Position numbers and translations under genes: made by a program. Below are positions 14,902-57,238 of a DNA stretch of 64,000 bases, in pieces. Below the pieces are notes generated by a model. That model was given only the letters and a program-made list of their open reading frames with translations. It had not been told where the DNA came from and did no database searches. The stretch is from an uncultured Candidatus Saccharibacteria bacterium (lineage in GTDB: Bacteria > Patescibacteriota > Minisyncoccia > Phycocordibacterales > UBA2100), in NCBI GenBank assembly GCA_964654205.1, contig CAZZHR010000002.1, positions 65,800 to 129,799 of the forward strand. The letters run 5' to 3'. How positions within the stretch are numbered: the first letter of the stretch is position 1; each line of letters begins with the position of its first letter.

Positions 14902-14911
14902 ACTCGATTAG

Positions 14912-28622: not shown

Positions 28623-30854
28623 CTAGAGTACTTCGGCCGTACCGGTACGTATCTGCTCAATGACAGGATCCGCCTGCTCTCCAATACCCGGGATAGCGCG
28701 CTTCGCTTCTTCGAGCGCCGCGATCGCCGCCGCGCGATTGCCGGAGAGGTAGTGTATCGCGGCAAGCGTGAAATAGAGCTGCGCATCCTGTGGATTTGCG
28801 CGGATGGCAGCTTCCCAAATCGGCACCGCGCGCACGAGCTGGTTGGTCGAGCGATACGCGGCGAGCACGCGCGAATCGGCCGCCTGGCCTTTCTCGACGT
28901 ATGGTGCGAGCACCTCTTCTCCCTCAGCCATCTGGCCGTTCAAAATGAGCCCAGAGCCGTAAAGCACGGCCGCAGTCGCGAATGACGCGTCGAGTTCGTG
29001 CGCCTGTTTGTAATACGAGAGCGCCGAGGCGGTATCGCCGCGCGCTATCGCGTTCTCCGCAAGCTGGAACATTATTGCCTGCTTTTTCGGAGAGTCTTCG
29101 AGCGCCCGTTCGTACGCTGCCTTCGCATCGTCGTGCAATCCATAGGCTCCATAGAGCACGCCGAGAAAGAGTGGAAAACGCGCATCCAGCGGCGACATGT
29201 CCTCCTGTTTCCGCATTTCCGATTCCGCGAGCGCAAAGAACTGCTGCTTCGTGGCCTCGGGTATGTCGAGCTGGCTCGCCTGTGCTGCCATTTGCGCGAG
29301 CTGCTCCCGGGCTTCCTGCATGCCAAATGTGCCGAGCTCAATCGACTGCCTCATGTACTCCAGATTCGTTGCAATCTGACCCTGCGGTGCGATCGCCTGG
29401 AGCAGAAGCCTGTTCGCAGCGAGCGGCTTTTGGTTGACACCCCATGCGAGGAAAAGCAGCGCGAGTGCACATGCGAGCGCGATGTACGGGATGTACGCAC
29501 GGTTGACTACTGCGCTCCAGAGCACTTTTGCTTCTTGCGCCTTACTGGCTCGATATGCGATAAACGCGAGCACCGTCCCAAAGAGGATGTAGCTTGTCAC
29601 GTTGTCGAAGACGAAGAAGTTGTGCACGAAGTAGCCCGCGAGGAGTCCCGTGAGTATCGAGCGCTCCGCTATCGAGAATCCATCCGGCCGTCCCGTCAAG
29701 ACACTTCGCCAGAGCGCGAATAGCGCAGCGAAGAATATCGAGAGATACGCGAGCAGGCCGAGCGTTCCCCCTGCGACCCACCAGTCGAAAATGATGTTGT
29801 GCACGCGGTCAAACCACGGCTCCTGGCTGTGCATGCGCGGGTCGTAGTACTTGTCGAAAACGAGCGCGTAATTCTCCTGACCCCAGCCCAAAATGGGCTT
29901 CTCCTGTACACCCTGCCATGCCATCTGCCAGTTGATGAATCGCGCCTTCGTCGTCGCGTCGTCGAGTGAGATGGTCGCAAGACGCTGGAGGAAGCCGATG
30001 CGCTGCACCCACGTCTGCTCTTTCACTAAGAAGAACCCGCCGATAATGACGAGGAGCCCTACCACCATCGCCGCCGACGCTCTCCATGCGTTGCGCGAAT
30101 TTTGAGCCTGCATGAGCACGAGCAGCGCGGAAAGGAGCGCGCCGCCGACGAGACCGAGAATCGCACCGCGCGTACCGGTGAGGAGAAGTGCGATGGTGTC
30201 GAGCACAATGATAGAGCCGTACATAAGCGAGATGCCGACGCGCTTTCCCTCGCCCCTTTCCACCCACTGCTGCGCCCAGAGCATCGCCGCGAGGAATATG
30301 TGGAACAGCATGTATGCAGCGAAGTAGATGGGGTTGCCGAATGTCGCGTCGATGCGGCCGCTCAGTCCCGCTGCTCCACCCTGACCGAGTGCAATCTGGC
30401 CGGTAACTTGGAAGAGGCCGTATATCGAGAGGTACGCCGAGACGCCGAGCGTCGTCCACCACAGCCACCGCCAGAGTTTCTCCGTCTGGAGCATCGAGGC
30501 TGCAACCACGGTGTAGACGAGGAGATGGGCAAGCGTCACCCACCCGTCCATGCGCTCGTAGTTGCTCCAGATGCTCTTAAAGGGGTATTCGCCGAAGATG
30601 TCGGCAAGCCCGATGATGGCAACAAATACAGCGAGTGCCGCGAGCACCCATGAGCGCCGGGGTCTATACGCGGGATTGACGAGTGCGAGCGCGAGCCACG
30701 CTGCCGCGCTTATCTCGACAACGATGCGAAAGGCGAAGTTTTTACCCGTGATGTAGGGGAAAAAGAGCGACGAAGTGACGAGGAGGCACACGAAGGGGAG
30801 CGCAAATACGCCAGCAAGGGCAATGAATCGGAGCGTCTTCTCAAGGACAGTCAT
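28623..30854 (-). CDS. O-antigen ligase/polymerase-like (Wzy_C) polytopic membrane protein with C-terminal TPR repeats
   Basis: About 12 TM helices plus a 'RFINWQMAWQGVQEKPILGWGQENYALVF' periplasmic loop typical of the WaaL/Wzy_C family. C-terminal ~250 aa of TPR-like repeats. Start trimmed to 'MTVLEKTL'. Confidence 0.7.
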   Translation of the reverse strand: MTVLEKTLRFIALAGVFALPFVCLLVTSSLFFPYITGKNFAFRIVVEISAAAWLALALVNPAYRPRRSWVLAALAVFVAIIGLADIFGEYPFKSIWSNYERMDGWVTLAHLLVYTVVAASMLQTEKLWRWLWWTTLGVSAYLSIYGLFQVTGQIALGQGGAAGLSGRIDATFGNPIYFAAYMLFHIFLAAMLWAQQWVERGEGKRVGISLMYGSIIVLDTIALLLTGTRGAILGLVGGALLSALLVLMQAQNSRNAWRASAAMVVGLLVIIGGFFLVKEQTWVQRIGFLQRLATISLDDATTKARFINWQMAWQGVQEKPILGWGQENYALVFDKYYDPRMHSQEPWFDRVHNIIFDWWVAGGTLGLLAYLSIFFAALFALWRSVLTGRPDGFSIAERSILTGLLAGYFVHNFFVFDNVTSYILFGTVLAFIAYRASKAQEAKVLWSAVVNRAYIPYIALACALALLFLAWGVNQKPLAANRLLLQAIAPQGQIATNLEYMRQSIELGTFGMQEAREQLAQMAAQASQLDIPEATKQQFFALAESEMRKQEDMSPLDARFPLFLGVLYGAYGLHDDAKAAYERALEDSPKKQAIMFQLAENAIARGDTASALSYYKQAHELDASFATAAVLYGSGLILNGQMAEGEEVLAPYVEKGQAADSRVLAAYRSTNQLVRAVPIWEAAIRANPQDAQLYFTLAAIHYLSGNRAAAIAALEEAKRAIPGIGEQADPVIEQIRTGTAEVL

Positions 30855-30867
30855 AGCCGGGATTCTA

Positions 30868-31686
30868 TCACGAACGCTTCTTGCGCGTCGGCCGGCCATG
30901 GTCGTCTTCGATGCGGACAATGTCCTCCTCATCGAAATCGCCGTATGCGACCTCCACGACGATGCCGCCTTTCTTCGACTCGAGCCTGTGTACCTGTTTC
31001 TTGCCCACACAGTACGTCTCGCCCCTTTTGAGCCTCACCTGCTCCGCTTTGCCCTTTGCATCGTGGAGGGTCGCTAAGGCATCGCCCTCTACAAGGAGCC
31101 AGCACTCGCTGCGACGATGATGGTATTGCAGACTCAACCGACTCTTGGGCTTTATGTAAATGGTCTTGAGATTCCAGTCCTTGCCACTGTCCCAGCCGTA
31201 GTATTCGCCCCACGGCCGTACTGTTTTCTTCACCGGTTTTGCCGCTTTCGCGATCATCCAGGACGAAGACTGTACTTTCCCTCCGTGACCAACTCGGTAC
31301 TTCCGCGCGATGCCGAGCTCGATGCACACAGAGTCCTCTGGCGTATTCGACTGTACCCTGTCGCCGCCATTGGCGAAGACGTGCGGGCGCAGCTTCCGGA
31401 GCGTGCGCGAGACACTCATATCGGGGTCGTTCTCCGCGTGGTCGGTGAGCACCACCTTGTCGACGAACGGGAGCGACCGTATCATCTCTGCGCGCTCTTT
31501 CTCCGGCATAAAAGCGAAACCTTTCTTAGACTTGAGCCAATTGTCATTGTTGATGATGACAACAAGCTTGTCGCCGAGCTTCTTTGCCTCCTTAAACATA
31601 CGCACATGTCCGATATGGAGTGGGTCGAACCCCCCCGACACAGCGACCCATCGAACCTTTTTGCTACCGTATCGTGCCTTGGCCAT
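30868..31686 (-). CDS. Cytidylyltransferase-like (HxGH) nucleotidyltransferase fused to a C-terminal cupin domain
   Basis: 'VAVSGGFDPLHIGHVRMFKEAKKLGD' (HIGH motif). C-terminal 'WGEYYG...LQYHHRRSECWLLVEGDA' is a cupin_2-like domain, as in the type II mannose-6-phosphate isomerase C-terminus. Confidence 0.65.
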   Translation of the reverse strand: MAKARYGSKKVRWVAVSGGFDPLHIGHVRMFKEAKKLGDKLVVIINNDNWLKSKKGFAFMPEKERAEMIRSLPFVDKVVLTDHAENDPDMSVSRTLRKLRPHVFANGGDRVQSNTPEDSVCIELGIARKYRVGHGGKVQSSSWMIAKAAKPVKKTVRPWGEYYGWDSGKDWNLKTIYIKPKSRLSLQYHHRRSECWLLVEGDALATLHDAKGKAEQVRLKRGETYCVGKKQVHRLESKKGGIVVEVAYGDFDEEDIVRIEDDHGRPTRKKRS

Positions 31687-31718
31687 AGTGGCGTCATCCT
31701 AGCAGAGAGGGCGCACGC

Positions 31719-32459
31719 ATGCGAACTCCTCTATATAATAGGGCTGTGGCGCATATATCACTTATCTTACCCGCGATAGACGAGACGAATTCGCTAGAAG
31801 AGACTGTCCGACTTTCACGTAAGGCACTTTCGTCGCACGACCTCGAGTTTCTCATCGTGACATCTCCCGCCTTTACGACAGGTCCTTGTCTTCGCACAAT
31901 CGAGAATCTGACGACCAACAACCCCGACATTCGACACATCGTGCAAACACTGCCGGGTGTCGGCGGCGCCATACGTAATGCGTTCGATGTTGCGAAGGGC
32001 GAATACACGGTACTCATGGCGAGCGACCTTGAGACTGACCCCGTCGCACTTCCGGCACTCATACAAAAATTGGAGGATGGATTCGACATCGCCGCTACGA
32101 CCCGGTGGCGCGGTGGCGCACATTTCGTAGGCTACCATCCTGTGAAACTTGTATTCAACTACGCATTTCAAAAACTATTTCGCATACTCTACTGGACAGA
32201 CCTCACAGACATGACATACGCATACCGCGCGTACCGCACACCAATAGTAAAACGCATCAGGTGGGAAGAAACGCGGCATCCTTTCCTTTTCGAGAGTATC
32301 GTGAAGCCACTGCGGCTGGGGTACAGAGTGACCGAAGTCGACACCTCATGGAAAGCTCGTTCGGAAGGCGTCTCGCACGGACGACTCACGGACACTCTGA
32401 ACTACGCAAAAGTAGGTCTCAGAGTCCGCTTTATGCCCGCGTCGGAGTTGGTATACTAG
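31719..32459 (+). CDS. Family 2 glycosyltransferase (polyprenyl-phosphate sugar transferase-like, ArnC/DPM1-like)
   Basis: GT-A fold, 'ISLILPAIDE' and 'DLETDP' (DxD region), 246 aa. Confidence 0.7.
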   Translation: MRTPLYNRAVAHISLILPAIDETNSLEETVRLSRKALSSHDLEFLIVTSPAFTTGPCLRTIENLTTNNPDIRHIVQTLPGVGGAIRNAFDVAKGEYTVLMASDLETDPVALPALIQKLEDGFDIAATTRWRGGAHFVGYHPVKLVFNYAFQKLFRILYWTDLTDMTYAYRAYRTPIVKRIRWEETRHPFLFESIVKPLRLGYRVTEVDTSWKARSEGVSHGRLTDTLNYAKVGLRVRFMPASELVY

Positions 32460-32559
32460 CCGCAACTCATATGCGTCCAGCTCTCATCACCCCGATACCA
32501 CAATGCTACGCATTGGCTACGGGGCAGGCCGGCGGCATACCTGGTGAGATTTCCTGACT

Positions 32560-33627
32560 ATGAAAAACAAACCGACACTGATTACTGGAGGTTGCGGCTT
32601 CGTTGGACGCCACCTCACGAAAAGCCTCATCGAACGAGGCTATCGAGAAATATGGATTATTGACAACATCGCTCTTGAGAGTGCACACCGTCCACACAGC
32701 TGGCTCTCGGCACGATGGCAAGAGTCCAGTGAGGGCGACGCGCTCATGTATAAGAAAGATGATGTATCGATACGATTCCTCGAGCGCGACGCGCTCGAAG
32801 TGTTCGCTACCCAGCCCGCCGGCGAATTTCCTCAGTTCGGCGATGTCTTCCACCTTGCTTCTATTGTAGGCGGGCGAACGCTTATCGATGGTGACCCCCT
32901 CCTCGTCGCACGTGACCTCGGTATCGATGCCGCGCTATTTCTTTGGCTCTCCCGTGATTCTATGCGCGCCGAACGCGTACTGTACGCTTCATCATCCGCT
33001 GCCTATCCCACGAGACTCCAGGGAGAGAGTGGTGCTGTCGCGCTCAAAGAGTCATTCATAGAATTCTCGGGCGGAACGCTTGGCCAGCCGGACATGACAT
33101 ACGGCTGGGCGAAACTCACCGGCGAGTACCTCGCAAAGCTCGCGCACGAAAAGTACGGCATGCACGTCGCCTGCGTCCGACCATTTTCCGGATATGGGGA
33201 GGATCAAGACCTCACATATCCCACCCCATCTATCGCTCTGCGTGTCGCACGCGGTGACGACCCCATAGAGGTTTGGGGTACCGGTACGCAAGGGCGCGAT
33301 TTCGTGCACATTGACGACTGCGTCGACGCATTCTTCGCTGTACTCGAGAAAGTGTCCGACGGCTCCGCCATCAATATCGGCACTGGGACGCCCACGACAT
33401 TCATTGAATTGATAGAACGCATGCTTACACTCGAAGGTCGTGCAGCAGGAATCAAGCCTCTTTCTGACAAACCGGTCGGAGTGACGACGCGATATGCGGA
33501 CACTACTATGATGGACGAGCGAGTACAGTGGCAGCCGAAAATATCGCTCGACGAGGGACTGCGCCGTGTACTCGACGGTGCGAGACAACGCCTCGCGGGA
33601 AACCCGCTTCCATTCTGCATCGTATGA
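32560..33627 (+). CDS. NAD-dependent epimerase/dehydratase (extended SDR)
   Basis: 'LITGGCGFVGRHL' Rossmann motif plus a YxxxK region. Confidence 0.75.
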   Translation: MKNKPTLITGGCGFVGRHLTKSLIERGYREIWIIDNIALESAHRPHSWLSARWQESSEGDALMYKKDDVSIRFLERDALEVFATQPAGEFPQFGDVFHLASIVGGRTLIDGDPLLVARDLGIDAALFLWLSRDSMRAERVLYASSSAAYPTRLQGESGAVALKESFIEFSGGTLGQPDMTYGWAKLTGEYLAKLAHEKYGMHVACVRPFSGYGEDQDLTYPTPSIALRVARGDDPIEVWGTGTQGRDFVHIDDCVDAFFAVLEKVSDGSAINIGTGTPTTFIELIERMLTLEGRAAGIKPLSDKPVGVTTRYADTTMMDERVQWQPKISLDEGLRRVLDGARQRLAGNPLPFCIV

Positions 33628-34724
33628 AGACGGCAATCGTCACCACAACGATATACGTGCCGAGACTCTTGGCTTCCTATGCCGACGACGCAAAGAAGCA
33701 CGGACACAACCCTATCTTTATCGTAGTCGCGGACAAGAAAACACCGCCGGAGGCCGAGGCGTTCTGCGCAGAACTCGCGAAAACATCGGGGTTTCGCGTC
33801 GAGTACTTTACGGTCGAGCGTCAGGACGAATACCTCTCTCGCTTCCCTGCACTGAAGGCTCACTTACCGTGGAATTGCATCCAGAGGCGCAATGTCGGGC
33901 TCCTCTATGCGTTTGAAGAAGGTTGCGAGACGATTATTACGATTGACGACGACAACTTCCGCGTAACTGAAGACTACATAGGAGCGCATGTTGTCAGCGG
34001 CGAGCGCGAGTGCGACGTAATCTCGACGACAACAGGCTGGCTCAACGTGTGTACTACTCTGAAAGAAAAGCACGGCCGGACTTTCTATCACCGCGGCTTC
34101 CCCCTCGAGAAGCGTCATCTTGAAGAAAACTGGAAGACACAAACACAGACCGTGCGGCCAGTCGTCAACGCCGGTCTCTGGCTCGGCGACCCGGACGTCG
34201 ACGCCATGGAGCGGCTCTACTGGTCCAATGAGCCGACAGAAGCGACCGAATACACAAGCACGCAAAACTACGCTCCGTCAAAGGGCATATGGACGCCTTT
34301 CAATTCACAGAACACCGCCATTGCGCGCCGAGCTATCCCCGCGTATTTTCTCAGTCCCATGGTCGGCCGGTACGATGACATTTGGGCCGCCTACATCATC
34401 AAAAGAATCGCGGACCACCTTGGCGAGTCCATCGTTTTCGGCGAACCTATCGTTCGACAAGAGCGGAACCCGCACAACTATTGGAAAGATCTCGACAATG
34501 AACGCTACGGGCATGCGCTCACTCTTCGTTTTACGCAGGTGCTCGATTCGATTGACCTAGAGGGAAAGGATTACGGCGAGTGCTACGCGGAACTCGTCGA
34601 CTCGCTGCCGACTACATTTACGTCGCTTGGCAAACTCTCCGACGTGGAGGACGCGTTCGTCGCCGGGTATTTTGAGGGTATGAGAGTATGGCGCGAGACA
34701 TTCCCTACCCAGCCCGGACAGTAA
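33624..34724 (+). CDS. Putative glycosyltransferase (RGP/GT75-like; DxD 'ITIDDDNF')
   Basis: Start trimmed to 'MKTAIVTTTIYVP' (ATGA overlap with the upstream stop). Weak resemblance to reversibly-glycosylated-polypeptide-type transferases. Confidence 0.4.
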   Translation: MKTAIVTTTIYVPRLLASYADDAKKHGHNPIFIVVADKKTPPEAEAFCAELAKTSGFRVEYFTVERQDEYLSRFPALKAHLPWNCIQRRNVGLLYAFEEGCETIITIDDDNFRVTEDYIGAHVVSGERECDVISTTTGWLNVCTTLKEKHGRTFYHRGFPLEKRHLEENWKTQTQTVRPVVNAGLWLGDPDVDAMERLYWSNEPTEATEYTSTQNYAPSKGIWTPFNSQNTAIARRAIPAYFLSPMVGRYDDIWAAYIIKRIADHLGESIVFGEPIVRQERNPHNYWKDLDNERYGHALTLRFTQVLDSIDLEGKDYGECYAELVDSLPTTFTSLGKLSDVEDAFVAGYFEGMRVWRETFPTQPGQ

Positions 34725-35055
34725 CGACGACACCAAGCAGTATCATCGCCAGGCCTATGGCCTGGAAAAGGGTGATGCGCTCGCCGAGGAGAATCGCTGC
34801 ACCTGTAGTGAGCACAAACGTCATACCTATCATAATGGGGTAGCCTACGGCGAGCGGCACAGAGCGCAGCGCGAGGAGGTAGAAACCGAGATTGAGTGCA
34901 AAGAGGACAGCAGCGCTCGCAGCGTACAGATGAGCAGCCGTGAACTCAAACCTAAACAATGCAGAAAAGGAAAACTGATTCGCAGCAGCAAACTTGAGCA
35001 GCACGTTCGCTGCAGCGTTGAGCGTGAAAGCGAGTGCGAGAAACATTAGGTTCAT
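34705..35055 (-). CDS. Small 4-TM SMR/EamA-like transporter (ArnE/ArnF-like flippase subunit candidate)
   Basis: 116 aa, four hydrophobic helices. Size and topology are typical of SMR/ArnE-F proteins. Confidence 0.5.
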   Translation of the reverse strand: MNLMFLALAFTLNAAANVLLKFAAANQFSFSALFRFEFTAAHLYAASAAVLFALNLGFYLLALRSVPLAVGYPIMIGMTFVLTTGAAILLGERITLFQAIGLAMILLGVVVTVRAG

Positions 35056-35069
35056 AGCGTAAGTCTATA

Positions 35070-36614: not shown

Positions 36615-36650
36615 TGGATTCTAGCGAGTACAGTATGGCATACTACCCGC

Positions 36651-38865: not shown

Positions 38866-38976
38866 ACAAGAAGTGAATGCGTGACACTTTAGCATGAATT
38901 GAACCGAGTGGCTTAGTCTGATAAGGTTGCTCTGGATGGGCTCTTTGACAGAGGGCCGCAACGAAGGGGTGAAACG

Positions 38977-40740: not shown

Positions 40741-40764
40741 ATTCGTTGCTTCACAGTTCTTCCG

Positions 40765-40800
40765 CCCCGGGCTTGTCCCGGGGCCTTTTCTTTTACTACG
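40765..40800 (+). terminator. Intrinsic terminator (gccccgggc-ttgt-cccggggcc + UUUUCUUUU)
   Basis: GC stem followed by 'ttttctttt', after the rSAM stop. Confidence 0.6.
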
Positions 40801-40821
40801 ATTCCTGGCTATACTCGCCGC

Positions 40822-41259: not shown

Positions 41260-41329
41260 TTGACAATAGTGATGTAAATCTGCATAGTTGCACCGGACCA
41301 TCCCGAAACGATTGGTGTGGGAGACAATA

Positions 41330-42205: not shown

Positions 42206-42215
42206 AGCACACGCA

Positions 42216-42246: not shown

Positions 42247-42285
42247 TTCTTTTATATGAGCGCGCAATCGGCTACTATGCATGTA

Positions 42286-43811: not shown

Positions 43812-43814
43812 CTC

Positions 43815-44942: not shown

Positions 44943-44943
44943 A

Positions 44944-45930: not shown

Positions 45931-45983
45931 GTTGGCTGTATAGTACGCACAATCGTGGTGTAAATCAAACGTACACGTCTCTC

Positions 45984-46649: not shown

Positions 46650-46659
46650 AGCGCAATTA

Positions 46660-51441: not shown

Positions 51442-52515
51442 TTATCGCACCCCCGCGGAAGCTACATCAGCGCAGTACGCGGATACATAGTCTTCGAAGC
51501 TTTTGTAAGGATAATCGGCCAAGAACGCGTCATAAGGACCCTCGGCAAACCAGCGCTTGAGCGCATCTCTGTAATCCTTTTCTTCTGTGACGATTGCTCC
51601 CGCTTCTCTGGCGATACCCACGTCGGTCGATAGGACCGGCTTCCCGGCAGCGAGCGCCTCGATGATGACGAGGCCATACCCTTCGTAGCGCGACGTGACA
51701 AGCACGAGGTCGGCGAGCGCGTAGTATGGCGCACTGTCTGTCTCGCCCTCAAAAAAGACGCGCTCGGCCACTTTGAGTTCATGAGCGAGCTTGTCGAGGT
51801 ACGGCCGTTCGCTGCCACCACCCACGATGACGAGGCACGCATCCGTCGGTGCCGCAGCCGCGAACGCCCGGAGCGCGAGGCATGGATTCTTTTCCGCCTC
51901 AAAGCGACCTACATAGAGCAGGCGTTTCGAAAACCGGGCAAACTTTTGCACAAGCTCCGTATCGGGTCTCGCATTGCGTACACGATCAATATCGACAAAG
52001 ATGGGCAGCACCGTTATCGGACATGTGAGCTCGAATGTATCCTGCAGTGAGCGCTTAATGCGCTCGGAAACGACACGAACACGTGATGAGCGTTGCAATA
52101 CGATTCCCGCCATACGGACGCGCAATCTGTTGATCCAAGAATGATTCGCATACGCCGGAGAAAGAAAGTCTGTGTGGACTTGCACATGCAGCGGCTTGCC
52201 GACAAAACGTGATATCACGAGTGCCGTGAGCCCAGCCTCGAATGGATCCTGTGCGGATACGACATCCGGCCATGGCAACCGCGTCGCGAGGAGTAGCGCA
52301 TCTATGCTATACAGCAACTTCGAGAACGACCTCGTAGGATGCACATGAAGCGCCCCATCGCGGATTTCTGTGAACCCATCGTTTTCGAGCGAGAAACCAA
52401 TGATGTCGAGTGCGCCGAATTTCTCAGCGTACGCTTTCTGCCGCGCGTATGCGGGAGAGCCGGGCACCAGGATGCCCCGCTTTGACCTGTCGGCTCCGAT
52501 CTGCAAGACATGCAT
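51442..52515 (-). CDS. Family 4 glycosyltransferase
   Basis: 'EGYGLVIIEALAAGKPVLSTDVG'. Confidence 0.75.
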   Translation of the reverse strand: MHVLQIGADRSKRGILVPGSPAYARQKAYAEKFGALDIIGFSLENDGFTEIRDGALHVHPTRSFSKLLYSIDALLLATRLPWPDVVSAQDPFEAGLTALVISRFVGKPLHVQVHTDFLSPAYANHSWINRLRVRMAGIVLQRSSRVRVVSERIKRSLQDTFELTCPITVLPIFVDIDRVRNARPDTELVQKFARFSKRLLYVGRFEAEKNPCLALRAFAAAAPTDACLVIVGGGSERPYLDKLAHELKVAERVFFEGETDSAPYYALADLVLVTSRYEGYGLVIIEALAAGKPVLSTDVGIAREAGAIVTEEKDYRDALKRWFAEGPYDAFLADYPYKSFEDYVSAYCADVASAGVR

Positions 52516-52529
52516 ACCTCTACAGAGTA

Positions 52530-53687
52530 TCAGCGTGCCGTGAGAATGTCCTCATACAATGTGATGAATGAATTCACCACGTTCGTAAGCTGGAACTGTT
52601 TAGACCTCTCATATGCAGACTTGGCCATTTTATTCCGCAGATCAAGGTTCACTAGAAGTTCCCGAATTTTCTCAGAGAATGCGTCTTCGTCACTCGGATC
52701 GACGAGGAAACCCGTAATCCCATCTTGCACCAATTCCGAGCAACCCCCCACATCGGTGGACACAATAGGAAGGCCGAAGTGCATGGCTTCGATGAAGACG
52801 TTGGGGAATCCCTCTTCGAGAGACGCAGACACGTAGAGCGCGGCGCCTTGAAACTGCGCATACACGTCTGCTGACGATAGGCGTCCTGTAAACGTGACCG
52901 GCACTCGGAGCCGCTTTGCTTCTGACTCGGATTCCTCGCGGATCCTGTCCTGGCCGTCACCGATGAGCACGAGATGTGCATGGGGGGTTTTCGCCTTGGC
53001 GAACGCACGGATTATCGTCGGTATTCTTTTGTGCGGAATGAACCGATTCGCTGACACGACGACAGGCTTGCTATCGTGAGTGAATGTCTTGTACCCGCCG
53101 CCCTCGATGTCGAGCGCATTTGGAATGATTCGGATACTCGCATCCTCGCCTGCTATCGCGCGAATGTTCTTCGCACGGAACTGTGAGGGTGCCCACACCA
53201 CAGAAAAAAGCAGAAGGCCGTGGCGTTCTATCCAAGTCAGGAACCTCGAAAAAACCGAGAAAGAGTAGGTGCCGCCGAAGTCACGGCTTTTTACGTCACT
53301 CGTTGCGTATGTTTCCCACACCCAGTCGCCTGCGAACTTTATGATACTGGGCATGCCTGCGATTTTCGCAAAAAGGCCTGCCACGAATGACAGTGCGCTC
53401 ACGCTGTGCGCATGTAGGATGTCCGGTCGCTCACGCACGATGACCCATGCCAGACATGCAGAACCGACGAGCCAGCGGATGGGCTTATCGAGCGGCGTGC
53501 GAGTGTAGCGCCAACGGTATCGGTACACCGTGTATCCGTCTGGATTCGACAACTCAAAGCGATCCCCTACAGTGACAACAACGGGTGTTACGCCCCTATC
53601 ATTGAGTACACGGCAAAGGTGCCACGACTGCGTTGCGGGCCCTCCTATCATGGGTGGGAAAATGGGCGCGTACATCAAGACTTTCAT
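52530..53687 (-). CDS. Family 4 glycosyltransferase
   Basis: 'EEGFPNVFIEAMHFGLPIVSTDVGGCSELV'. Confidence 0.75.
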   Translation of the reverse strand: MKVLMYAPIFPPMIGGPATQSWHLCRVLNDRGVTPVVVTVGDRFELSNPDGYTVYRYRWRYTRTPLDKPIRWLVGSACLAWVIVRERPDILHAHSVSALSFVAGLFAKIAGMPSIIKFAGDWVWETYATSDVKSRDFGGTYSFSVFSRFLTWIERHGLLLFSVVWAPSQFRAKNIRAIAGEDASIRIIPNALDIEGGGYKTFTHDSKPVVVSANRFIPHKRIPTIIRAFAKAKTPHAHLVLIGDGQDRIREESESEAKRLRVPVTFTGRLSSADVYAQFQGAALYVSASLEEGFPNVFIEAMHFGLPIVSTDVGGCSELVQDGITGFLVDPSDEDAFSEKIRELLVNLDLRNKMAKSAYERSKQFQLTNVVNSFITLYEDILTAR

Positions 53688-53762
53688 ATCTCGATACTAT
53701 ACATGCCTCCTCGCCCGCTCATTGTCCCATTCGTCCGACTGTCACCAGCGACCCGAGCTACG

Positions 53763-54818
53763 CTAGCCACGTTTGGTGGCAAATTTTACCTTTTTGAAGT
53801 ACGCCTGCTGAAGGTCGAGTTGCATCTTCTCAAAGGTGCCCGGCGGCAAAGCTTTAGTCGCAGCAATAATACGACGGATACCCTCCTCCAAGGAGACCTC
53901 TGGCGTGAATCCGAGTACTTTCTTTACTTTCTTCATATCTGCAAGCAGTCGGTACGCATAGATCTGAATAGGGACATTTACACGCACGGGCTTCGGAGTC
54001 TTGACTCCGAGCTGCTTAGCAATGATAGCAAGTACGTCATTGAACGTGTGCTCAATGCCGAAGCCAAGGTTCAGTTCGCAGGTCGGGATATTCTTTTCCA
54101 TCGCCATAATGAAAGCGCGGGCTACGTCGTCGACATAGATGAAATCACGCGTCTGCTTGCCGTCGCCCCATATGACCGGCTTCTGTCCGCCCATGAGCGC
54201 CCACGTAAGGAGCGACGTGATGTTGGCATACCCCAGCTTCGTATGCTCTCCGACTCCGTAGACGGAGAATGGTCGGAAGGCGATGCATTTGAAACCCCAC
54301 CTGTTGCTATAGCGCCTTGCTTCAAGTTCGCACCAATGTTTCGAGCCTGCTTTACTGTCGGGCGGATCGATGGGCATGTCCTCGCGAAATGGCACGCGCG
54401 GCGGCTTGTTCCATTCCTCATAGACGGCGGACGTGGATGCCCATACTATCTTTCTTTTCCCATGCTTGCGCATCGCCTCAAGGATTGTCTTGAACCCGCG
54501 CATCGTAAAGTCGCAGGACTCTACGTCGTTCTCTTCGTACATGATGAACGACGACGGCGCAGCGAGATGGATGATATGGTCTGCTTTTGAGACCAAGTCC
54601 GAAACGAGCTTGTAGTCACGGACGTCGCCCTCTTTCCAGGCTATGTGCGGGGAATTGAGTATTTGGTCGCGATTCGAGAACCGGAAATTATCGAGCGCCG
54701 TGACCCGGTATCCCTTTTCGATAAGTTGCCTCACGAGAGAGCGCCCGATAAAACCTGCTGCGCCTGTCACGAATACGTTTTCACGCAGACCAGACTTTTT
54801 TCGAAACTGTTTTTTCAT
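53763..54818 (-). CDS. NAD-dependent epimerase/dehydratase (SDR)
   Basis: 'VFVTGAAGFIGRSLVRQL'. Start probably 'MKKQFRK'. Confidence 0.75.
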   Translation of the reverse strand: MKKQFRKKSGLRENVFVTGAAGFIGRSLVRQLIEKGYRVTALDNFRFSNRDQILNSPHIAWKEGDVRDYKLVSDLVSKADHIIHLAAPSSFIMYEENDVESCDFTMRGFKTILEAMRKHGKRKIVWASTSAVYEEWNKPPRVPFREDMPIDPPDSKAGSKHWCELEARRYSNRWGFKCIAFRPFSVYGVGEHTKLGYANITSLLTWALMGGQKPVIWGDGKQTRDFIYVDDVARAFIMAMEKNIPTCELNLGFGIEHTFNDVLAIIAKQLGVKTPKPVRVNVPIQIYAYRLLADMKKVKKVLGFTPEVSLEEGIRRIIAATKALPPGTFEKMQLDLQQAYFKKVKFATKRG

Positions 54819-55130
54819 ATGGCGAGGATAGTACCATGGCGGCACTCAAAGTAAAACGGGGCGCGAGGGCGCCCCGTTCCAATCTTGGGCAGGCGGGAAC
54901 GCTACCGCGTTGGCGGACCCGCGAGAAGATAGGGACTCCTCAGAATGAGCTCGGTGATGATGAGAGACGACTGAATCCAGGCGATGGCAATGGTAGCCGG
55001 CGCAAGCGTCAGCATTGCGTACTCCTTCATTCCGAACTCGTTTCCTTGGAGAGGAGAGACAAATGGGAACATTACAGCTCCCTCCTTTCCTACCCAATCA
55101 AACACCCATATCGGTGTTCTCACCAGCGAG

Positions 55131-56354
55131 TTATCCCCTGTTCGTCAGTGGGTCGAAAACCTCCCTTTTCATGCGCTCTGCTATCAGACCCCAGTCGTAC
55201 CGCTCCGCCGCAAGCTCCCTGGCGTTCTTTACGATGCGTGCGGTGAGCGACGGCTCACCCATGTAGCGCCGCACAGCTTTAGCGACTGATTCCGGATTGC
55301 TGACTTCGCAGAAGATGCCTGTCGGTTCCATGTCGGGATTTCTCTCCGGGTCGAAAAGAAAATCTGGTATGCCGCCGACCGGAGTCGCCACCACGGGAAT
55401 GCCCGCAGCGAACGCTTCAACAAACGCATTGCCAAAACCCTCGATAAGCGATGGTCGCACAAAAATGTCGCACATTTTGTAGTACGCCGGCAATTCGTCG
55501 TGACCGATGTGCCCCGCAAAAATTACGCGCCCCCGCACGCCAGATTCCTGCGCTATGCGCTCGAGCTTGGCTTCGTCTTCTCCAGAGCCGGCAATGAGCA
55601 GCTTTACATTCTCGGGCAGGTGCGCGAGCGAGCGAATCGTGTCCTCGACACCGCGCGAGAGTACGAGGCGCGATGCGGTGAAGAGGAATACGTCACCCAT
55701 TTTTTTGTCGTACTTTTCCTTCAACGTGAGGAGTTCATCTTCCGGTATCACACGAGAAAACTTCGCCACGTCGACTGCGTTGGGAATCACTGCTACGTGC
55801 CCCTTGTACCCTATGTTCCGCACCTCCCGCTCCAGAAAATGCGATATAACCTTGATGCGGTCGGCTCTATGGTAGACACGTTTGTACAGCCACCACAGCA
55901 CATAGAGAATCGGTCGACGCTTCGGCATGTCGCTAAACGCTCGGCCGTCCTGTAGCTCAAGCACATACGGCGTCTTGGGGTGCAGATAATTGAAGATCAT
56001 GCCCGCGAAACCCGCCTGGTTCGCCATCATCGACCAGACCGTGTCGTACACATACTTCTGGTCGAGCATCATCGCTTTCACAAATGCCGTAAAAGGGAAC
56101 AGTAGCTTGGCGAACTTGAGAGTAAGCGGCATCATGCGATCCGACACCTTTGGATTTGCAGCAGACGGGCCGATGCGGTGAATCGTTATGTTGCCCCGCC
56201 TCTCGACTTTCGGCAGGGCTCTGTCGAAGCGGAGCGTCACCATGTGAAATTCATACTCGCTGGAATCAATGCGGTCGGTAATTTCTTTTATCGCCACCTC
56301 CGCGCCGCCAACGAAGGGATGGTAAGTGAGCGAGATAATCAGAACGCGTCTCAT
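55131..56354 (-). CDS. Family 4 glycosyltransferase
   Basis: 'IEGFGNAFVEAFAAGIPVVATPVGGIPDFL'. Confidence 0.75.
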   Translation of the reverse strand: MRRVLIISLTYHPFVGGAEVAIKEITDRIDSSEYEFHMVTLRFDRALPKVERRGNITIHRIGPSAANPKVSDRMMPLTLKFAKLLFPFTAFVKAMMLDQKYVYDTVWSMMANQAGFAGMIFNYLHPKTPYVLELQDGRAFSDMPKRRPILYVLWWLYKRVYHRADRIKVISHFLEREVRNIGYKGHVAVIPNAVDVAKFSRVIPEDELLTLKEKYDKKMGDVFLFTASRLVLSRGVEDTIRSLAHLPENVKLLIAGSGEDEAKLERIAQESGVRGRVIFAGHIGHDELPAYYKMCDIFVRPSLIEGFGNAFVEAFAAGIPVVATPVGGIPDFLFDPERNPDMEPTGIFCEVSNPESVAKAVRRYMGEPSLTARIVKNARELAAERYDWGLIAERMKREVFDPLTNRG

Positions 56355-57238
56355 GCCTTCTGTGCCTTTAGTGAATCTATATACTGTTTTACCGTCATCT
56401 GCGGCTTCCAGCCGAATTCCTTTTCCACTCGTGTCGTATCGACGATCGAGTCCATGCGGTTCCCCTTCCGCTCCGGCAGCATGACGATGTTGTCAGTAAA
56501 CATCTTCGCGATATCGAGCACCGTGTGCGATTCAGGACTTCCGAGACCGTACTCATCGCCCTGCCCTTTCTCCCCCACATCGACGAGGCCGCGCGCGATG
56601 TCGCCGGCAAAGGTAAAGTTGCGCTTCTGCGTACCAGGTGAGACCACGGTGATGGGCTCGCCTTTCCAGTACTGCGTCTTGAAACGTCCGATGACGCTCG
56701 CATACGGGCCTTCCGCGAGCTCTTGTTTTCCGTACGCATTGTAGAAATACGTGATGGCGTACGGCATGCTGAACCATGTGCCGTAGTTGCGCACGAGTTC
56801 GGTATTGCTCGCCTTCATCCACGCGTAGGGCGATTGGTCGCGCCCCATGCCGCCATCTGAGAACTTGGTCGACGAACCGGCATACACGATTTTGCACTTC
56901 TGGCCAGATAGATTGCGCTTGCGCCAATACTCGAAGACGCGGAACGTGCCGTGGACGTTGCTCTCCCACACGAGCGGCAAGTCGTCGAAGCTTTGTTCGA
57001 CGCGCGAGTACTCGCCGAGATGGAAAATGATAGCGGGGTTTTCTTTGCCGAGAAGCTGTTCGATGTCTTTCGTATGTCCCTCTACGTACTCCGCTCCCGC
57101 GAAATGATTGTCCTTGCTGCCGATGAAGTAATTGTCGAGCGATACCACCCGATACCCCTTTTCGAGGAGCATCTCGATAAGGTGTGAACCAATCAGACCG
57201 GCGCCACCTGTCACAATGACCGTTTTTTTCTCACTCAT
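56351..57238 (-). CDS. UDP-glucuronate decarboxylase-like SDR (UXS/ArnA-C-like)
   Basis: 'VIVTGGAGLIGSHLIEML...VVSLDNYFIGSKDNH' closely matches the UXS signature 'VDNFFTGRKRN'. 295 aa. Confidence 0.65.
   Translation of the reverse strand: MSEKKTVIVTGGAGLIGSHLIEMLLEKGYRVVSLDNYFIGSKDNHFAGAEYVEGHTKDIEQLLGKENPAIIFHLGEYSRVEQSFDDLPLVWESNVHGTFRVFEYWRKRNLSGQKCKIVYAGSSTKFSDGGMGRDQSPYAWMKASNTELVRNYGTWFSMPYAITYFYNAYGKQELAEGPYASVIGRFKTQYWKGEPITVVSPGTQKRNFTFAGDIARGLVDVGEKGQGDEYGLGSPESHTVLDIAKMFTDNIVMLPERKGNRMDSIVDTTRVEKEFGWKPQMTVKQYIDSLKAQKA

Follow-up and report, generated by a model that had tools for sequence, protein, structure and literature searches.

A 26-gene surface-glycan assembly locus with conserved ends and a variable middle in a putative Kaiserbacteria-like bacterium

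The window, i.e., the whole 64-kb stretch of DNA analysed, harbors a glycan-assembly locus of 28.6 kb (28623-57238) composed of 26 consecutive genes, close to the "twenty-five or so" estimated in an earlier sequence-only reading, and delimited by the stop end of the ORF for a Wzy_C-TPR protein (position 28623) and the start of the last SDR gene (57238). Gene families were assigned by Pfam-A scans against curated cut-offs, NCBIfam equivalog models and PDB matches. Above the Pfam cut-off were Wzy_C, TPR, GT2, PMT_2, Polysacc_synt, two SAM methyltransferases, B12-binding plus Radical_SAM, Formyl_trans_N and DegT, along with four SDR Epimerase proteins and two CTP_transf_like proteins. These searches agree with the surface-glycan locus proposed by that reading, with its Wzx, Wzy_C/TPR, GT4, GT2, GT-C, methylation and formylation enzymes, and the GT, Wzx and Wzy assignments, whose failure in profile searches it had named as its refutation, stand up; its seven GT4 genes plus a fusion were corrected to six stand-alone GT4 genes and one UGDH-GT4 fusion, which amount to seven GT4 domains. 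No NCBIfam equivalog model reached its cut-off for any gene of the locus; thus, substrates are left without assignment and we infer every sugar identity. Twenty-six glycan-pathway genes in a row greatly exceed what chance would give, and this is a genuine cell-surface sugar-chain assembly locus of an ordinary kind. Judged from its named homologues, the host is a tiny-genome Paceibacteria/Kaiserbacteria-like (CPR) bacterium, in line with the reduced genome previously supposed.

The coding strand switches at seven gene junctions, giving eight same-strand runs, therefore the locus is not a single operon; the only 12-gene co-directional block spans 43815-57238. The 4-bp start/stop overlaps described before as numerous are present at 5-6 of ~25 junctions (SDR1/GT75, GT4b/MT11, MT11/GT4c, GT4c/fusion, GT4f/SDR4 and possibly GT4a/DUF), and GC3 forms a mosaic of 0.51-0.75 across the locus. 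Conserved chromosomal regions flank the locus, with SecA-GatB at one end and ComEA/VirD4-like genes at the other, where a 165-aa ORF with no assigned function (57371-57868) lies between SDR4 and the ComEA-PKD/VirD4-like core genes.

The first gene (28623-30851, minus strand) encodes a membrane protein of the O-antigen-ligase family (Pfam Wzy_C, 78.7 bits; several TPR families) with 742 aa counted from MTVLEKT, including a C-terminal TPR domain of ~250 aa; 53 further N-terminal codons of the ORF are probably not translated. Its membrane part displays the WaaL fold, which is the sole membrane-protein fold match listed, the NCBIfam RfaL match is weak (9.8e-5), and the Pfam scan found no PglL_A (PF15864) in it. 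Helix number and positive-inside charge distribution predict an extracellular TPR domain. Species genomes of Paceibacteria that encode the protein in full length number at least 572 (33-87% identity across the 80 listed loci), and the protein clusters containing it exceed 2,900 (54-87% across the 120 listed); SecA lies within 10 kb of the gene in 51 of those 80 loci. The pilin transferase TfpW is a precedent for TPR in such transferases. Further, the same domain pairing, Wzy_C plus a C-terminal TPR motif, is found in PglL and in the S-layer O-oligosaccharyltransferase WsfB, both acting on proteins (PMC2943079), which makes the S-layer or pilin glycan suggested earlier a plausible product. We consider this protein a candidate en-bloc glycan ligase or O-oligosaccharyltransferase.

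A gap of 16 bp separates the ligase gene from the end of an upstream gene (30868-31686, minus strand) whose product fuses, according to Pfam, a CTP_transf_like nucleotidyltransferase of the HldE-domain-II/TagD class to a mannose-6-P-isomerase-type cupin (NCBIfam rfaE_dom_II 1.6e-18 and GMP_PMI C-terminus 5e-18, both under cut-off; PDB 3GLV 1.4e-12). Counterparts with 47-73% identity are present in 14 of the 80 loci, directly upstream of the ligase in seven of these. Three plus-strand genes follow: a GT2 of the polyprenyl-phosphate-sugar synthase type (31719-32459; DPM1/AglJ/PgfS/ArnC-like; Pfam Glycos_transf_2, 51.1 bits), whose four top NCBIfam matches are all polyprenyl-P glycosyltransferases and in which no TM segment was found; the nucleotide-sugar epimerase/dehydratase SDR1 (32560-33627; Pfam Epimerase, 119 bits), matching GDP-mannose 3,5-epimerase (PDB 2C59, 1.6e-19) as well as UDP-Glc and UDP-GlcA 4-epimerases; and a GT75 NDP-pyranose mutase of the RGP/MtdL family (33624-34724; Pfam RGP, 37.5 bits). 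The latter aligns with MtdL (PDB 7XPR/7YUA) across residues 2-329 (E 2e-47) and keeps six of the seven key residues of that enzyme (PMC9937993), namely the DDD motif, Arg159, Asp195, Ser228, Arg257 and Asp260, with Gln at the position of the Mn-ligand His287; its product would be an NDP-furanose donor. On the minus strand, and 14 bp apart, are the genes for a small SMR-family protein with four hydrophobic segments predicted as TM (34705-35055; weak Pfam Multi_Drug_Res and TMEM234; NCBIfam ArnF 1.2e-5 and ArnE 4e-5, both under cut-off), a candidate ArnE/ArnF-like polyprenyl-P-sugar flippase, and for a multi-TM membrane glycosyltransferase of GT-C fold (35070-36614; PMT_2/ArnT-like), borderline in Pfam (26.4 bits; cut-off 26.1). 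A Wzx-type flippase of the MOP superfamily (36651-37913, plus strand; Polysacc_synt, 62.2 bits), with only ~30% identity to the Wzx genes of other loci, is followed by a SAM methyltransferase, MT23 (37867-38871, minus strand; Methyltransf_23, 88 bits), carrying a Cys-rich motif at its N-terminus and a TM segment at its C-terminus; its ORF of 496 aa is over-extended, the gene call on identical DNA being 300 aa. Most of this cassette recurs in the related locus L017, where orthologs of MT23 (51%), GT-C (40-47%, as in L090), GT2 (62%), SDR1 (62%), GT75, the nucleotidyltransferase-cupin and the ligase constitute one co-directional operon with overlaps or gaps of at most 15 bp.

Next come five plus-strand genes: a B12-binding-domain radical SAM enzyme (38977-40740; Pfam), AprD4/HpnJ-like by NCBIfam (HpnJ 1.7e-16, AprD4 4.5e-16, both under cut-off) and PDB (AprD4 6FD2, 3.4e-16); a stand-alone CTP_transf_like nucleotidyltransferase (40822-41259; Pfam, NCBIfam), a paralogue with 56% identity to the N-terminus of the cupin fusion; a 291-aa ORFan of a rare family (41330-42205) with no Pfam or NCBIfam match, only five homologues among 5.8 billion clusters and a poor AF2 model (pLDDT 55); GT4a (42244-43419; Glycos_transf_1, 98 bits); and a small protein of ~130 aa (43362-43811, in fact starting near 43416-43422) that weakly resembles DUF4254/DUF6165. 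In L091 the radical SAM ortholog (69%) adjoins the same ORFan, which there also adjoins a CTP_transf_like gene. The remaining genes, all on the minus strand, open with a DegT-family nucleotide-sugar aminotransferase (43815-44942; ArnB/PseC/QdtB-like; 380 bits; NCBIfam PseC 6e-101 and ArnB 2.5e-80, both under cut-off; PDB ArnB-like 4LC3, 6e-67), the epimerase/dehydratase SDR2 (44944-45930; 98 bits) and an N-formyltransferase (45984-46649; Formyl_trans_N, 33.7 bits; NCBIfam ArnA 8.5e-13; PDB 1ZGH 2e-9 and ArnA 3e-7), whose GC3 of 0.51 is the locus minimum, followed by GT4b (46660-47793; 153.6 bits) and a second SAM methyltransferase, MT11 (47790-48419; Methyltransf_11, 46.1 bits).

At the far end lies an arm kept in relatives, comprising SDR4, GT4f, GT4d, the UGDH-GT4 fusion and GT4c; it adjoins VirD4 in three relatives, L089 and L090 among them. 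The innermost gene, GT4c (48416-49444; 54.7 bits), has orthologs of 44-51% identity in L086, L089 and L090. Its sequence and the GT4 portion of the neighbouring fusion are closely paralogous, aligning end to end with 34% identity (E 3e-61); the tandem GT4 paralogy claimed previously holds for this pair only, and the other pairs align partially with 22-36% identity. The fusion itself (49441-51423) joins GT4 to a truncated nucleotide-sugar 6-dehydrogenase with the N-terminal and central domains and the catalytic Cys motif GGHCFIKD (Pfam; TIGR03026 1.5e-33, model positions 73-293 of 413; PDB UGDH 3PHL 2.8e-17, with the Cys motif in the alignment). The C-terminal UDP-binding domain is absent from the Pfam and PDB alignments, and this mini-UGDH may not be a uronic-acid synthase. 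The fusion has 235 matches in all; of the 120 listed, 46 show the GT4 fusion in full length, with 50-77% identity, and elsewhere the dehydrogenase module is joined to another GT4, to SDR or to Epimerase_2, or stands alone. GT4d (51442-52515; 92 bits) has orthologs of 51-83% at the same position, and outward of it are two variable slots: GT4e (52530-53687; 132 bits), with no ortholog at that position in L086, L089 or L090, and the epimerase/dehydratase SDR3 (53763-54845; 157 bits), only ~30% identical to the SDR occupying that place in L089 and L090. The arm ends with GT4f (55131-56354; 125 bits; orthologs 61-89%) and the epimerase/dehydratase SDR4 (56351-57238; 123 bits; positional orthologs of 74-93% in L086, L089 and L090).

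Between close relatives the middle of the island varies, and the ligase-like enzyme and the glycosyltransferase block stay at opposite ends. In the closest relative (SecA 91% identical), identity along the arm falls going into the island, from SDR4 (93%) through GT4f (89%), GT4d (83%) and the fusion (71%) to GT4c (44%), and the centre is entirely different. In three relatives SecA-GatB-HTH flank the ligase likewise and the glycan genes across from these differ, as they do in one relative whose ligase is 87% identical. For most genomes the comparison spanned 10 kb on each side. Among 36 genomes, 0-5% of the ORFs on the glycan side had a counterpart with at least 40% identity in another genome, versus 17-50% on the SecA side at the same ligase divergence. 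The assignment to O-antigen-ligase-like proteins with a TPR tail is upheld as to family; by its distribution and fold, the Wzy_C protein has the behaviour of a conserved ligase and not that of a polymerase specific to a serotype. The sequence-only reading did not contain this arrangement of conserved ends and differing middle genes.

The reading that we favor, with a probability of about 50%, is that an oligosaccharide dependent on Wzx receives its decoration on the outer side of the membrane, by a GT2/flippase/GT-C route, and is then transferred en bloc by the TPR-bearing ligase, probably to surface proteins. The main ORFs of the 64-kb window, when scanned, matched no priming phosphoglycosyltransferase family, which leaves the lipid-linked route incomplete as observed; a priming enzyme encoded beyond the window would start the glycan on polyprenyl phosphate, and the GT4 enzymes would extend it in the cytoplasm. 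To judge from the families encoded, the conserved arm would supply a lineage-conserved part, probably with uronic acid, and the variable centre strain-specific sugars: DegT, SDR2 and the formyltransferase could yield a formamido sugar, the two methyltransferases would add methyl groups, and the rSAM/ORFan/nucleotidyltransferase cassette some further modification. The lipid-linked oligosaccharide would then be flipped by Wzx. In parallel, SDR1 and the GT75 mutase may provide an NDP-furanose, and the DPM1/ArnC-type GT2, linked with them in one cassette, would load a sugar onto polyprenyl phosphate for the SMR-type protein to flip and the GT-C enzyme to add on the outer face, a logic common to Arn, Gtr and arabinan systems. 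Finally, the WaaL-fold enzyme, with its TPR domain predicted to face outward, would pass the finished glycan to its acceptor. LPS production is not known from CPR bacteria, and WsfB and PglL glycosylate proteins; for these reasons, the acceptor would most likely be one or more surface proteins, for instance a pilin, an S-layer protein or exported proteins whose linkers are rich in Ser/Thr/Ala/Pro. The genes adjoining the locus include neither a pilin nor an S-layer gene, and the tie once drawn to the pilin gene at 4671-5126 comes down to its presence 23.5 kb away.

The Wzy_C-TPR protein could instead polymerise a lineage-conserved repeat unit built by the GT4 arm, the product being a teichuronic-acid-like secondary cell-wall polymer or capsule that the variable genes only decorate and that an enzyme encoded elsewhere attaches. 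Pfam Wzy_C spans polymerases and ligases alike, Wzx is present, the GT4 proteins match TuaC of teichuronic acid synthesis (all under cut-off), and in Kaiserbacteria the arm with its uronic-acid-type dehydrogenase is conserved alongside the Wzy_C-TPR gene; since the arm is conserved too and the two activities are indistinguishable by sequence, repeat unit and polymerase may both have been conserved. We nevertheless find this alternative doubtful. The Wzy_C-TPR protein is far more widespread than the fusion gene, and in other genomes it adjoins ABC-transporter genes instead of Wzx, a poor fit to a Wzy polymerase; WaaL is its sole listed membrane-fold match. In the variable upstream flank, 8 of the 138 sampled ORFs carry Wzx and 7 carry ABC-transporter ATPase domains. 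Moreover, the scanned ORFs of the window gave no match to the Wzz/PCP family and contained no further membrane protein resembling a polymerase, nor did the window show an attachment enzyme of LCP type; of a Wzx/Wzy-type pathway, as proposed earlier, Wzx and the Wzy_C protein are present, with no match to the priming and Wzz families.

It is unlikely that the genes are neighbours by coincidence, with an insertion hot-spot beside SecA gathering unrelated glycan cassettes of several independent pathways and a housekeeping Wzy_C-TPR protein (e.g., in envelope or pilus biogenesis) making no use of their products. Such a view accommodates the GC3 mosaic, the strand switches (at least seven), the separate occurrence of the furanose/GT-C cassette (L017) and the rSAM cassette (L091), and a ligase kept whatever its flank holds. 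However, a WaaL-fold enzyme requires a lipid-linked glycan as donor, glycan-biosynthesis families dominate the Pfam matches of the upstream flank in the 36 genomes sampled, and the tight co-directional spacing of cassette and ligase genes in L017, as well as the 16 bp separating the nucleotidyltransferase-cupin gene from the ligase here, argue against it.

A classical LPS O-antigen cluster, whose WaaL would join O-antigen to lipid A-core, is highly improbable despite the WaaL fold, the Wzy_C domain and the weak RfaL match, because the scanned ORFs of the 64-kb window matched no family for lipid A, core or OM export and, to our knowledge, WaaL proteins normally lack a 250-aa TPR tail. The lineage belongs to Parcubacteria, and a curated Parcubacteria genome was reported without lipid A/LPS genes, lpxC and kdsA among them (PMC5220378).

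The profile searches also brought out genes that do not figure in the sequence-only reading, namely the GT75 NDP-pyranose mutase, the SMR-type flippase candidate, the four SDRs, the DegT aminotransferase and the two nucleotidyltransferases.

The plausible genes of the window were translated and scanned against Pfam-A and NCBIfam. The glycan locus at 28623-57238 contains 26 genes, close to the twenty-five or so counted in an earlier sequence-only reading, and the limits proposed there proved exact, running from the stop end of a 795-codon minus-strand ORF to the start of a 295-aa SDR gene. All the families named in that reading (Wzy_C, GT2, GT-C, Wzx, two methyltransferases, a radical-SAM protein, a formyltransferase, GT4 and a UGDH-GT4 fusion) scored above the Pfam curated cut-offs, and its GT, Wzx and Wzy assignments thus held in the Pfam-A scan: the Wzx flippase of the MOP superfamily (36651-37913) matched Polysacc_synt with 62.2 bits (cut-off 28.2), and the GT-C gene (35070-36614) was borderline, with 26.4 bits for PMT_2 (cut-off 26.1) and a precomputed match on the identical protein flagged as "weak". 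Several further components, not listed in that reading, came to light: an NDP-pyranose mutase of family GT75 (33624-34724), an SMR-type protein with four TM segments (34705-35055) adjoining the GT-C gene, four SDR epimerase/dehydratases, one DegT aminotransferase, a pair of nucleotidyltransferases of the HldE-II/TagD class, of which one carries a fused cupin of the mannose-6-P-isomerase type, and a 291-aa ORFan (41330-42205). None of the locus proteins matched an NCBIfam model at the curated cut-off, and therefore substrates cannot be named from profiles.

The remaining early claims were borne out in part. Seven GT4 domains are present, one fewer than counted, since stand-alone GT4 genes number six besides the fusion, and the proposed tandem paralogy applies only to GT4c and the GT4 domain of the fusion (34% identity, E 3e-61), other pairs giving partial alignments of 22-36%. 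Similarly, the 4-bp overlaps between consecutive genes were seen at five or six junctions, but the genes lie on both strands with a strand switch at seven junctions, and the sole long co-directional stretch is that of 12 genes at 43815-57238. As for a Wzx/Wzy-type pathway, Wzx and a Wzy_C candidate are encoded, but neither a priming phosphoglycosyltransferase (Bac_transf PF02397, MraY/WecA PF00953) was matched in Pfam among the main ORFs scanned in the 64-kb window, nor a Wzz/GNVR/PCP chain-length regulator among the window ORFs scanned; the priming enzyme may be encoded elsewhere in the genome. Likewise, no LCP family and no LPS family was matched among the ORFs scanned across the 64 kb. Two gene models were corrected: the 496-codon minus-strand ORF at 37867-39357 is over-extended as a Methyltransf_23 gene, overlapping the divergent start of the radical-SAM gene by ~380 bp, and its true start is probably 38871 or 38769; and a 121-aa call for 40822-41259, made on identical DNA, was discarded in favor of the 145-aa start, since it would cut off the HxGH nucleotidyltransferase motif.

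A conserved element of the locus is the Wzy_C-TPR gene at its end (28623-30851, minus strand). The product, 742 aa from MTVLEKT, had been described as an O-antigen-ligase-like protein with a TPR tail, and accordingly displays a Wzy_C domain (78.7 bits against a Pfam gathering score of 31.7) followed by several TPR families in a domain of ~250 aa. More than 2,900 homologous clusters were found, the best 120 being nearly all full-length (~740 aa) and 54-87% identical, and a scan of one genome per species gave at least 572 confirmed relatives. Among 80 listed loci, identities ranged from 33 to 87%, in Kaiser-, Campbell-, Lloyd-, Taylor-, Yonath-, Nomura- and Zambryskiibacteria. In an alignment of 16 sequences, with a mean column identity of 66%, the invariant residues include R228, R304 and H351, whose spacing (76/47 residues, against 73/50 in Escherichia coli WaaL) and position match the conserved R215/R288/H338 of WaaL and R224/R298/H349 of PglL (PMC3643930).

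The membrane part is predicted by the AF2 model to adopt the 12-TM fold of WaaL with its large extracytoplasmic loop, with 13% sequence identity to WaaL of Cupriavidus metallidurans (7TPJ) and one extra TM helix. In the fold search, WaaL was found among the 60 matches listed, the other 59 being TPR matches, a list from which Wzy structures cannot be ranked; a profile search of the alignment against PDB sequences was filled by TPR proteins and returned no membrane-domain match. Topology was derived from the helix boundaries of the model together with positive-inside counting, assuming the orientation of WaaL (N-terminus inside, catalytic loop outside), crude hydropathy having been abandoned as it missed helices and did not settle orientation. 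Under this assumption, 12 Lys/Arg residues fall in short loops predicted to be cytoplasmic against 4 in external ones, and the TPR domain would be placed outside the cell, carried there by the thirteenth helix. PglL_A (PF15864), a motif defined on Gram-negative PglL proteins, was absent from the Pfam matches of the protein at E <= 0.01.

The two sides of this candidate ligase gene differ in their conservation. In the loci of three relatives (L003, L004 and L005) the gene is followed, as in the window, by those of SecA, GatB and an HTH_17 protein and by a giant ORF, and the other side is different in each: L003 carries a methyltransferase, GT2, a 548-aa membrane protein, PMT_2, GtrA, an NTP_transferase, a further GT2, GFO/DAO, HAD and a GHMP kinase; L004 a methyltransferase, PMT_2, GFO, HAD, NeuB-cupin, CTP_transf_3, LamG, MTase_21 and Glyphos_transf; and L005 an ABC exporter, WavE, DUF218, two NTP_transferases, EamA, CTP_transf_3 and Epimerase_2. 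When the window proteins were searched by tblastn against the 80 loci with 10 kb of flank per side, SecA was matched in 51 and GatB in 30, GT2 in two, GT75 and GT-C in one each, and the radical-SAM protein, the ORFan, the formyltransferase, the SMR-type protein and a small DUF protein in none. The exception among the glycan genes was the nucleotidyltransferase-cupin gene (30868-31686, minus strand), matched in 14 of the 80 loci at 47-73% identity and directly upstream of the ligase gene in seven of these, as it is here. Among 36 genomes with 10 kb on both sides, and at equal ligase divergence, 0-5% of the ORFs on the glycan side matched an ORF of another genome with 40% identity or more, against 17-50% on the SecA side.

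A Pfam census of 138 ORFs sampled upstream of the ligase gene in these 36 genomes recovered SDR (Epimerase) proteins (12), methyltransferases (11), Wzx (8), ABC transporter ATPases (7), CTP_transf_3 (6), NeuB (5), DegT (4) and GT4 (3), and therefore the flank is a glycan region of changing content that includes both Wzx-type and ABC-type export genes. NeuB and CTP_transf_3, which belong to nonulosonic-acid biosynthesis (sialic/legionaminic/pseudaminic-type), occur in the flanks of some genomes (L004, L005 and others) and are absent from the window. The tRNA and Rfam scans of the window found nothing, and hence no tRNA-linked integration signature.

A homolog of the UGDH-GT4 fusion was located on a single 126-kb contig together with the closest relative of the ligase, and the ends of the island on this contig match those of the window. 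In gene order from the RsmI end, the identities to the window proteins are 100% for RsmI, 98% for DUF4015, 93% for the VirD4-like protein, 80% for ComEA-PKD (57928-59136), 93% for SDR4 (56351-57238) and 89% for GT4f (55131-56354); after two unrelated ORFs with no window counterpart follow GT4d (51442-52515, 83%), the fusion (49441-51423, 71%) and GT4c (48416-49444, 44%), all on the minus strand in the window, then a different gene set with no window counterpart, and finally the ligase (87%) and SecA (91%). The different set comprises a polysaccharide deacetylase, ATP-grasp/LMWPc, Wzx (29%), an asparagine synthase, DegT (34%), a methyltransferase, GT4 and PIG-L, followed by the L003 genes, and the island there measures ~34 kb against 28.6 kb in the window. 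On two more Kaiserbacteria contigs the same arm lies beside the VirD4-like gene and that of an LTD protein, and here too the genes that come after it are not those of the window: one contig has FdtA/DegT, and its counterpart a GT-C ortholog, UbiA and a carbamoyltransferase. Therefore, the locus is arranged in three parts: a conserved ligase end, a variable center (~30868-48419, plus a small variable slot at SDR3/GT4e) and a conserved arm from SDR4 to GT4c, whose identity to the closest relative drops toward the center. In L089 and L090 an LTD-domain protein stands at the position held by ComEA-PKD in the window. Third-position GC is ~0.70-0.75 in the ligase gene, the fusion gene and several flanking core genes, and 0.51-0.60 in the DegT-SDR2-formyltransferase-GT4b block (43815-47793) of the center, a value that fits acquisition of this block from another lineage.

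Within the arm, the dehydrogenase module of the fusion retains the NAD-binding (PF03721, 52.9 bits) and central (PF00984, 48 bits) domains, and its catalytic Cys motif GGHCFIKD aligns with GGYCLPKD of the Ugd structure 3PHL. No match to the C-terminal UDP-binding domain (PF03720) was obtained in the fusion: the dehydrogenase matches stop at about residue 266-271 and GT4 begins at about 310. Full-length homologs of the fusion are 50-77% identical, and the module of ~280 aa recurs in other Patescibacteria at 50-67% identity, fused to a different GT4, to SDR (in proteins of ~604 aa) or to a domain of the UDP-GlcNAc-2-epimerase type (655 aa), or as a stand-alone protein (363-378 aa). Fusion partners of these families catalyze nucleotide-sugar steps that immediately precede or follow that of a 6-dehydrogenase, and their roles fit a working nucleotide-sugar dehydrogenase that would provide a uronic acid to the conserved part of the glycan.

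The variable center contains recurrent cassettes. In the first, GT2 (31719-32459), SDR1 and GT75, together with GT-C and Methyltransf_23, recur in L017 with 40-66% identity, arranged in one co-directional operon whose last genes are the nucleotidyltransferase-cupin gene and the ligase gene; the cassette is missing from the closest relative. GT75 aligns over its whole catalytic region with the solved NDP-pyranose mutase MtdL (E 2e-47) and keeps the DDD motif, Arg159, Asp195, Ser228, Arg257 and Asp260, the only key residue replaced being His287, where a Gln is found; in MtdL, Arg159 is the nucleophile and His287 an Mn2+ ligand (PMC9937993). The best four NCBIfam matches of GT2 (dolichyl-P-hexose transferase, PgfS, AglJ and ArnC) all represent polyprenyl-phosphate glycosyltransferases, and GT2, the SMR-type protein and GT-C correspond by analogy to a well-known system of three components, in which glycans are decorated at the external side of the membrane. 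The linkage of GT75 with GT2 and GT-C in L017 suggests that the sugar delivered is a furanose.

The DegT aminotransferase, whose best PDB relative is an ArnB-like enzyme (6e-67), predicts a formamido sugar in combination with SDR2 and the formyltransferase. We do not regard these genes as a complete Arn (Ara4N) pathway: no match to ArnD (Polysacc_deac_1) was found in the window; the Arn-like scores were all far under the cut-offs (ArnB 2.5e-80, ArnA formyltransferase 8.5e-13, ArnC 1.2e-7, ArnE/F ~1e-5); and in L017 GT2 and GT-C travel with GT75, not with an aminotransferase. A further cassette (38977-42205) comprises the B12-binding radical-SAM gene (38977-40740), the CTP_transf_like gene and the ORFan, which recur together in L091, an unrelated glycan locus of Patescibacteria (GCA_964362445.1; L091 8131-11398), with identities of 69% for the radical-SAM protein and 47% for the ORFan. 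The radical-SAM protein is AprD4/HpnJ-like, its best PDB relative being AprD4 (3.4e-16). The ORFan has no family match and only five homologs in the whole protein collection, and its AF2 model is poor, with a pLDDT of 55. In L091 the cassette lies close to GT9 and SIS-domain genes, a setting that may hint at a modified heptose or another unusual sugar.

In the pathway that we propose, a lipid-linked oligosaccharide primed by an enzyme encoded elsewhere would be extended in the cytoplasm by the GT4 set and moved across the membrane by Wzx, the GT2/SMR/GT-C route would add a decoration at the outer face, and the WaaL-fold enzyme would carry out en bloc transfer, likely as the last step. The acceptor is probably a protein, as judged by analogy: a curated Parcubacteria genome is reported to lack lipid A/LPS genes, the CPR cell envelope being called unclear in the same paper (PMC5220378); a C-terminal TPR motif accompanies Wzy_C both in PglL and in WsfB, the O-oligosaccharyltransferase of a Gram-positive S-layer, and for WsaB a TPR protein is encoded next door (PMC2943079). 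The pilin transferase TfpW, in turn, has a periplasmic C-terminal TPR domain. No acceptor gene adjoins the ligase gene, its neighbors being SecA and a PaaX-like gene. Candidates elsewhere in the window are the exported ComEA-PKD protein, one ORF past the SDR4 end, which carries HHH_3 and PKD domains and a signal peptide and is a possible O-glycosylation acceptor on account of a 30-residue linker stretch that includes 19 Ser/Thr and of a C-terminal region rich in Ala, Ser and Pro; a 2,172-aa protein with 25% Ser+Thr; and the pilin (4671-5126), located 23.5 kb from the ligase gene. In a more far-reaching reading, to which we assign a probability of about 0.3, Paceibacteria (Kaiser-, Campbell-, Lloyd-, Taylor-, Yonath- and Nomurabacteria, among others) would share a general protein O-glycosylation system, with a WaaL-fold enzyme bearing an outward TPR domain for acceptor recognition and a strain-variable island whose products would include a furanose (GT75/GT2/GT-C), a uronic acid (domain-reduced dehydrogenase fusion) and a sugar modified by the radical-SAM/ORFan cassette.

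The Wzy_C-TPR protein is also the sole candidate in the window for a dedicated Wzy polymerase, and it might polymerize a repeat unit made by the conserved arm into a teichuronic-acid-like wall polymer, which we regard as rather unlikely. The ligase route is favored over the polymerase because the enzyme is conserved across genomes with different glycan sets and with both Wzx- and ABC-type export, has the fold of WaaL, lacks an accompanying Wzz among the window ORFs scanned and is spread more widely than the GT4 arm. That the cassettes are independent pathways parked at a recombination hot-spot appears improbable, as co-directional and tightly spaced operons tie them to the ligase gene in both L017 and the window. 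A classical LPS O-antigen cluster is very hard to reconcile with the lineage and with the absence of LPS genes among the window ORFs scanned.

The proposed glycosylation system shares traits with several known ones. The S-layer glycosylation (slg) loci of Paenibacillus alvei and Geobacillus stearothermophilus (WsfB, WsaB) also combine nucleotide-sugar genes, glycosyltransferases, an exporter and a Wzy_C-domain transferase in one cluster, in organisms devoid of LPS, and contain TagD-like cytidylyltransferase genes, as found here, and asparagine-synthase-like genes, as found in L086 and L091. However, our locus has neither an adjacent S-layer gene nor a WsaP/WsfP-type priming enzyme, and its TPR domain (~250 aa) is much longer than that of WsfB, the likeness being one of domain description. 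O-antigen clusters and WaaL share with it the Arg/Arg/His spacing, a ligase kept while the glycan genes vary, export by Wzx and ABC systems, and presumably a priming enzyme outside the cluster, which in E. coli is encoded by wecA; apart from its low identity and extra helix, the enzyme differs from WaaL in its large TPR domain, and no lipid A-core acceptor is expected. PglL/PilO/TfpO resemble the proposed enzyme in the en bloc transfer of Und-PP-linked glycans by a Wzy_C-family protein with relaxed glycan specificity, but here PglL_A is absent and the transferase gene is not beside the pilin gene. TfpW provides a precedent for a periplasmic C-terminal TPR domain going with pilin glycosylation, although its catalytic family is GT-C.

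The combination of GT2, a small flippase-type protein and GT-C, encoded here within 5 kb, is likewise that of ArnC/ArnEF/ArnT, GtrA/GtrB/GtrC, CsbB/GtcA/YfhO and decaprenyl-P-arabinofuranose with Emb/Aft, and L003 follows the same three-component logic with a GtrA-type flippase. With the Arn system the locus also shares ArnB-like aminotransferase, ArnA-like formyltransferase and UGDH-like genes; conversely, there is no ArnD-type deformylase, the matches are below the equivalog cut-offs, the target is not lipid A, and the cassette linkage favors a furanose over Ara4N. Apart from the Gln in place of the Mn ligand His287, GT75 differs from MtdL, Hyg20 and plant UAM in that its gene lies in a cell-surface glycan locus, not in an antibiotic cluster. 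Finally, the hypervariable glycotype islands of streamlined free-living bacteria such as SAR11 (HVR2), Prochlorococcus, Alteromonas and Salinibacter also have a fixed position, conserved flanks and a glycan content that varies between close relatives; here, one flanking gene is that of the conserved transferase itself, part of the glycosyltransferase set is conserved, and the variation is between relatives.

The composition of the CPR/Patescibacteria envelope is largely unexplored, and these cells rely on surface contact with their hosts. A Kaiserbacteria-like genome commits 28.6 kb to surface glycans here, in a layout that recalls O-antigen and S-layer-glycan loci, with a transferase conserved across 572 or more species genomes, a backbone module that is likewise conserved and a center that differs between relatives. 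The locus is of a known type: its ends are conserved and its center varies, as in clusters for O-antigens or S-layer glycans. What may be new are the cassettes of GT75/GT2/GT-C and radical-SAM/ORFan and the fusions of the domain-reduced dehydrogenase. The abundance of glycosyltransferases in Parcubacteria was already noted (PMC5220378), and apart from general remarks of this kind we found no description of Patescibacteria glycan islands or of the Wzy_C-TPR enzyme in CPR in the literature searched. The analysis offers as targets the Wzy_C-TPR enzyme, the candidate acceptors and three cassettes whose products can be predicted. Should the locus indeed serve protein glycosylation, the system would be the main mechanism of surface variation in a large uncultivated lineage; otherwise, it is an ordinary glycan cluster, now correctly annotated.

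Regarding the organism, the homologs of the locus proteins carry the names Candidatus Kaiserbacteria, Parcubacteria, Paceibacterota or Patescibacteria. This lineage is in keeping with the remaining genes of the window, among them those for a split transketolase, a type IV pilin and a 23S-rRNA-intervening-sequence protein, and with its ORFs of 1,375 and 2,172 aa. Logan contigs from SRR15237804 and SRR15237806 encode identical proteins. Many MAG records with close homologs (L006, L008 and L012, among others) bear the title "uncultured Candidatus Saccharibacteria"; the nearest relatives with a name are Kaiserbacteria/Paceibacterota, and these titles are probably generic or wrong taxonomic labels.

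The PaaX-like gene between SecA and the ligase gene (27787-28437) encodes a product whose central domain is Cas2-like (PaaX_M, 76.6 bits), with a counterpart in only 6 of the 80 related loci and none in the closest relative. The region 10115-21430 holds two giant ORFs with an IS200-like Y1 transposase gene (14239-14901) between them, one coding for the 1,375-aa protein with DUF7483 and SPRY domains and the other for the Ser/Thr-rich protein of 2,172 aa, whose sole match is an N-terminal HTH_17. An HTH protein and a giant ORF after GatB are kept in relatives, where the giant ORFs measure 2,395 and 8,310 aa. At the start of the window (112-1101), a pfkB-family sugar kinase is encoded, of a family that includes HldE domain I, and might act as supplier for the HldE-domain-II-like nucleotidyltransferases of the locus.
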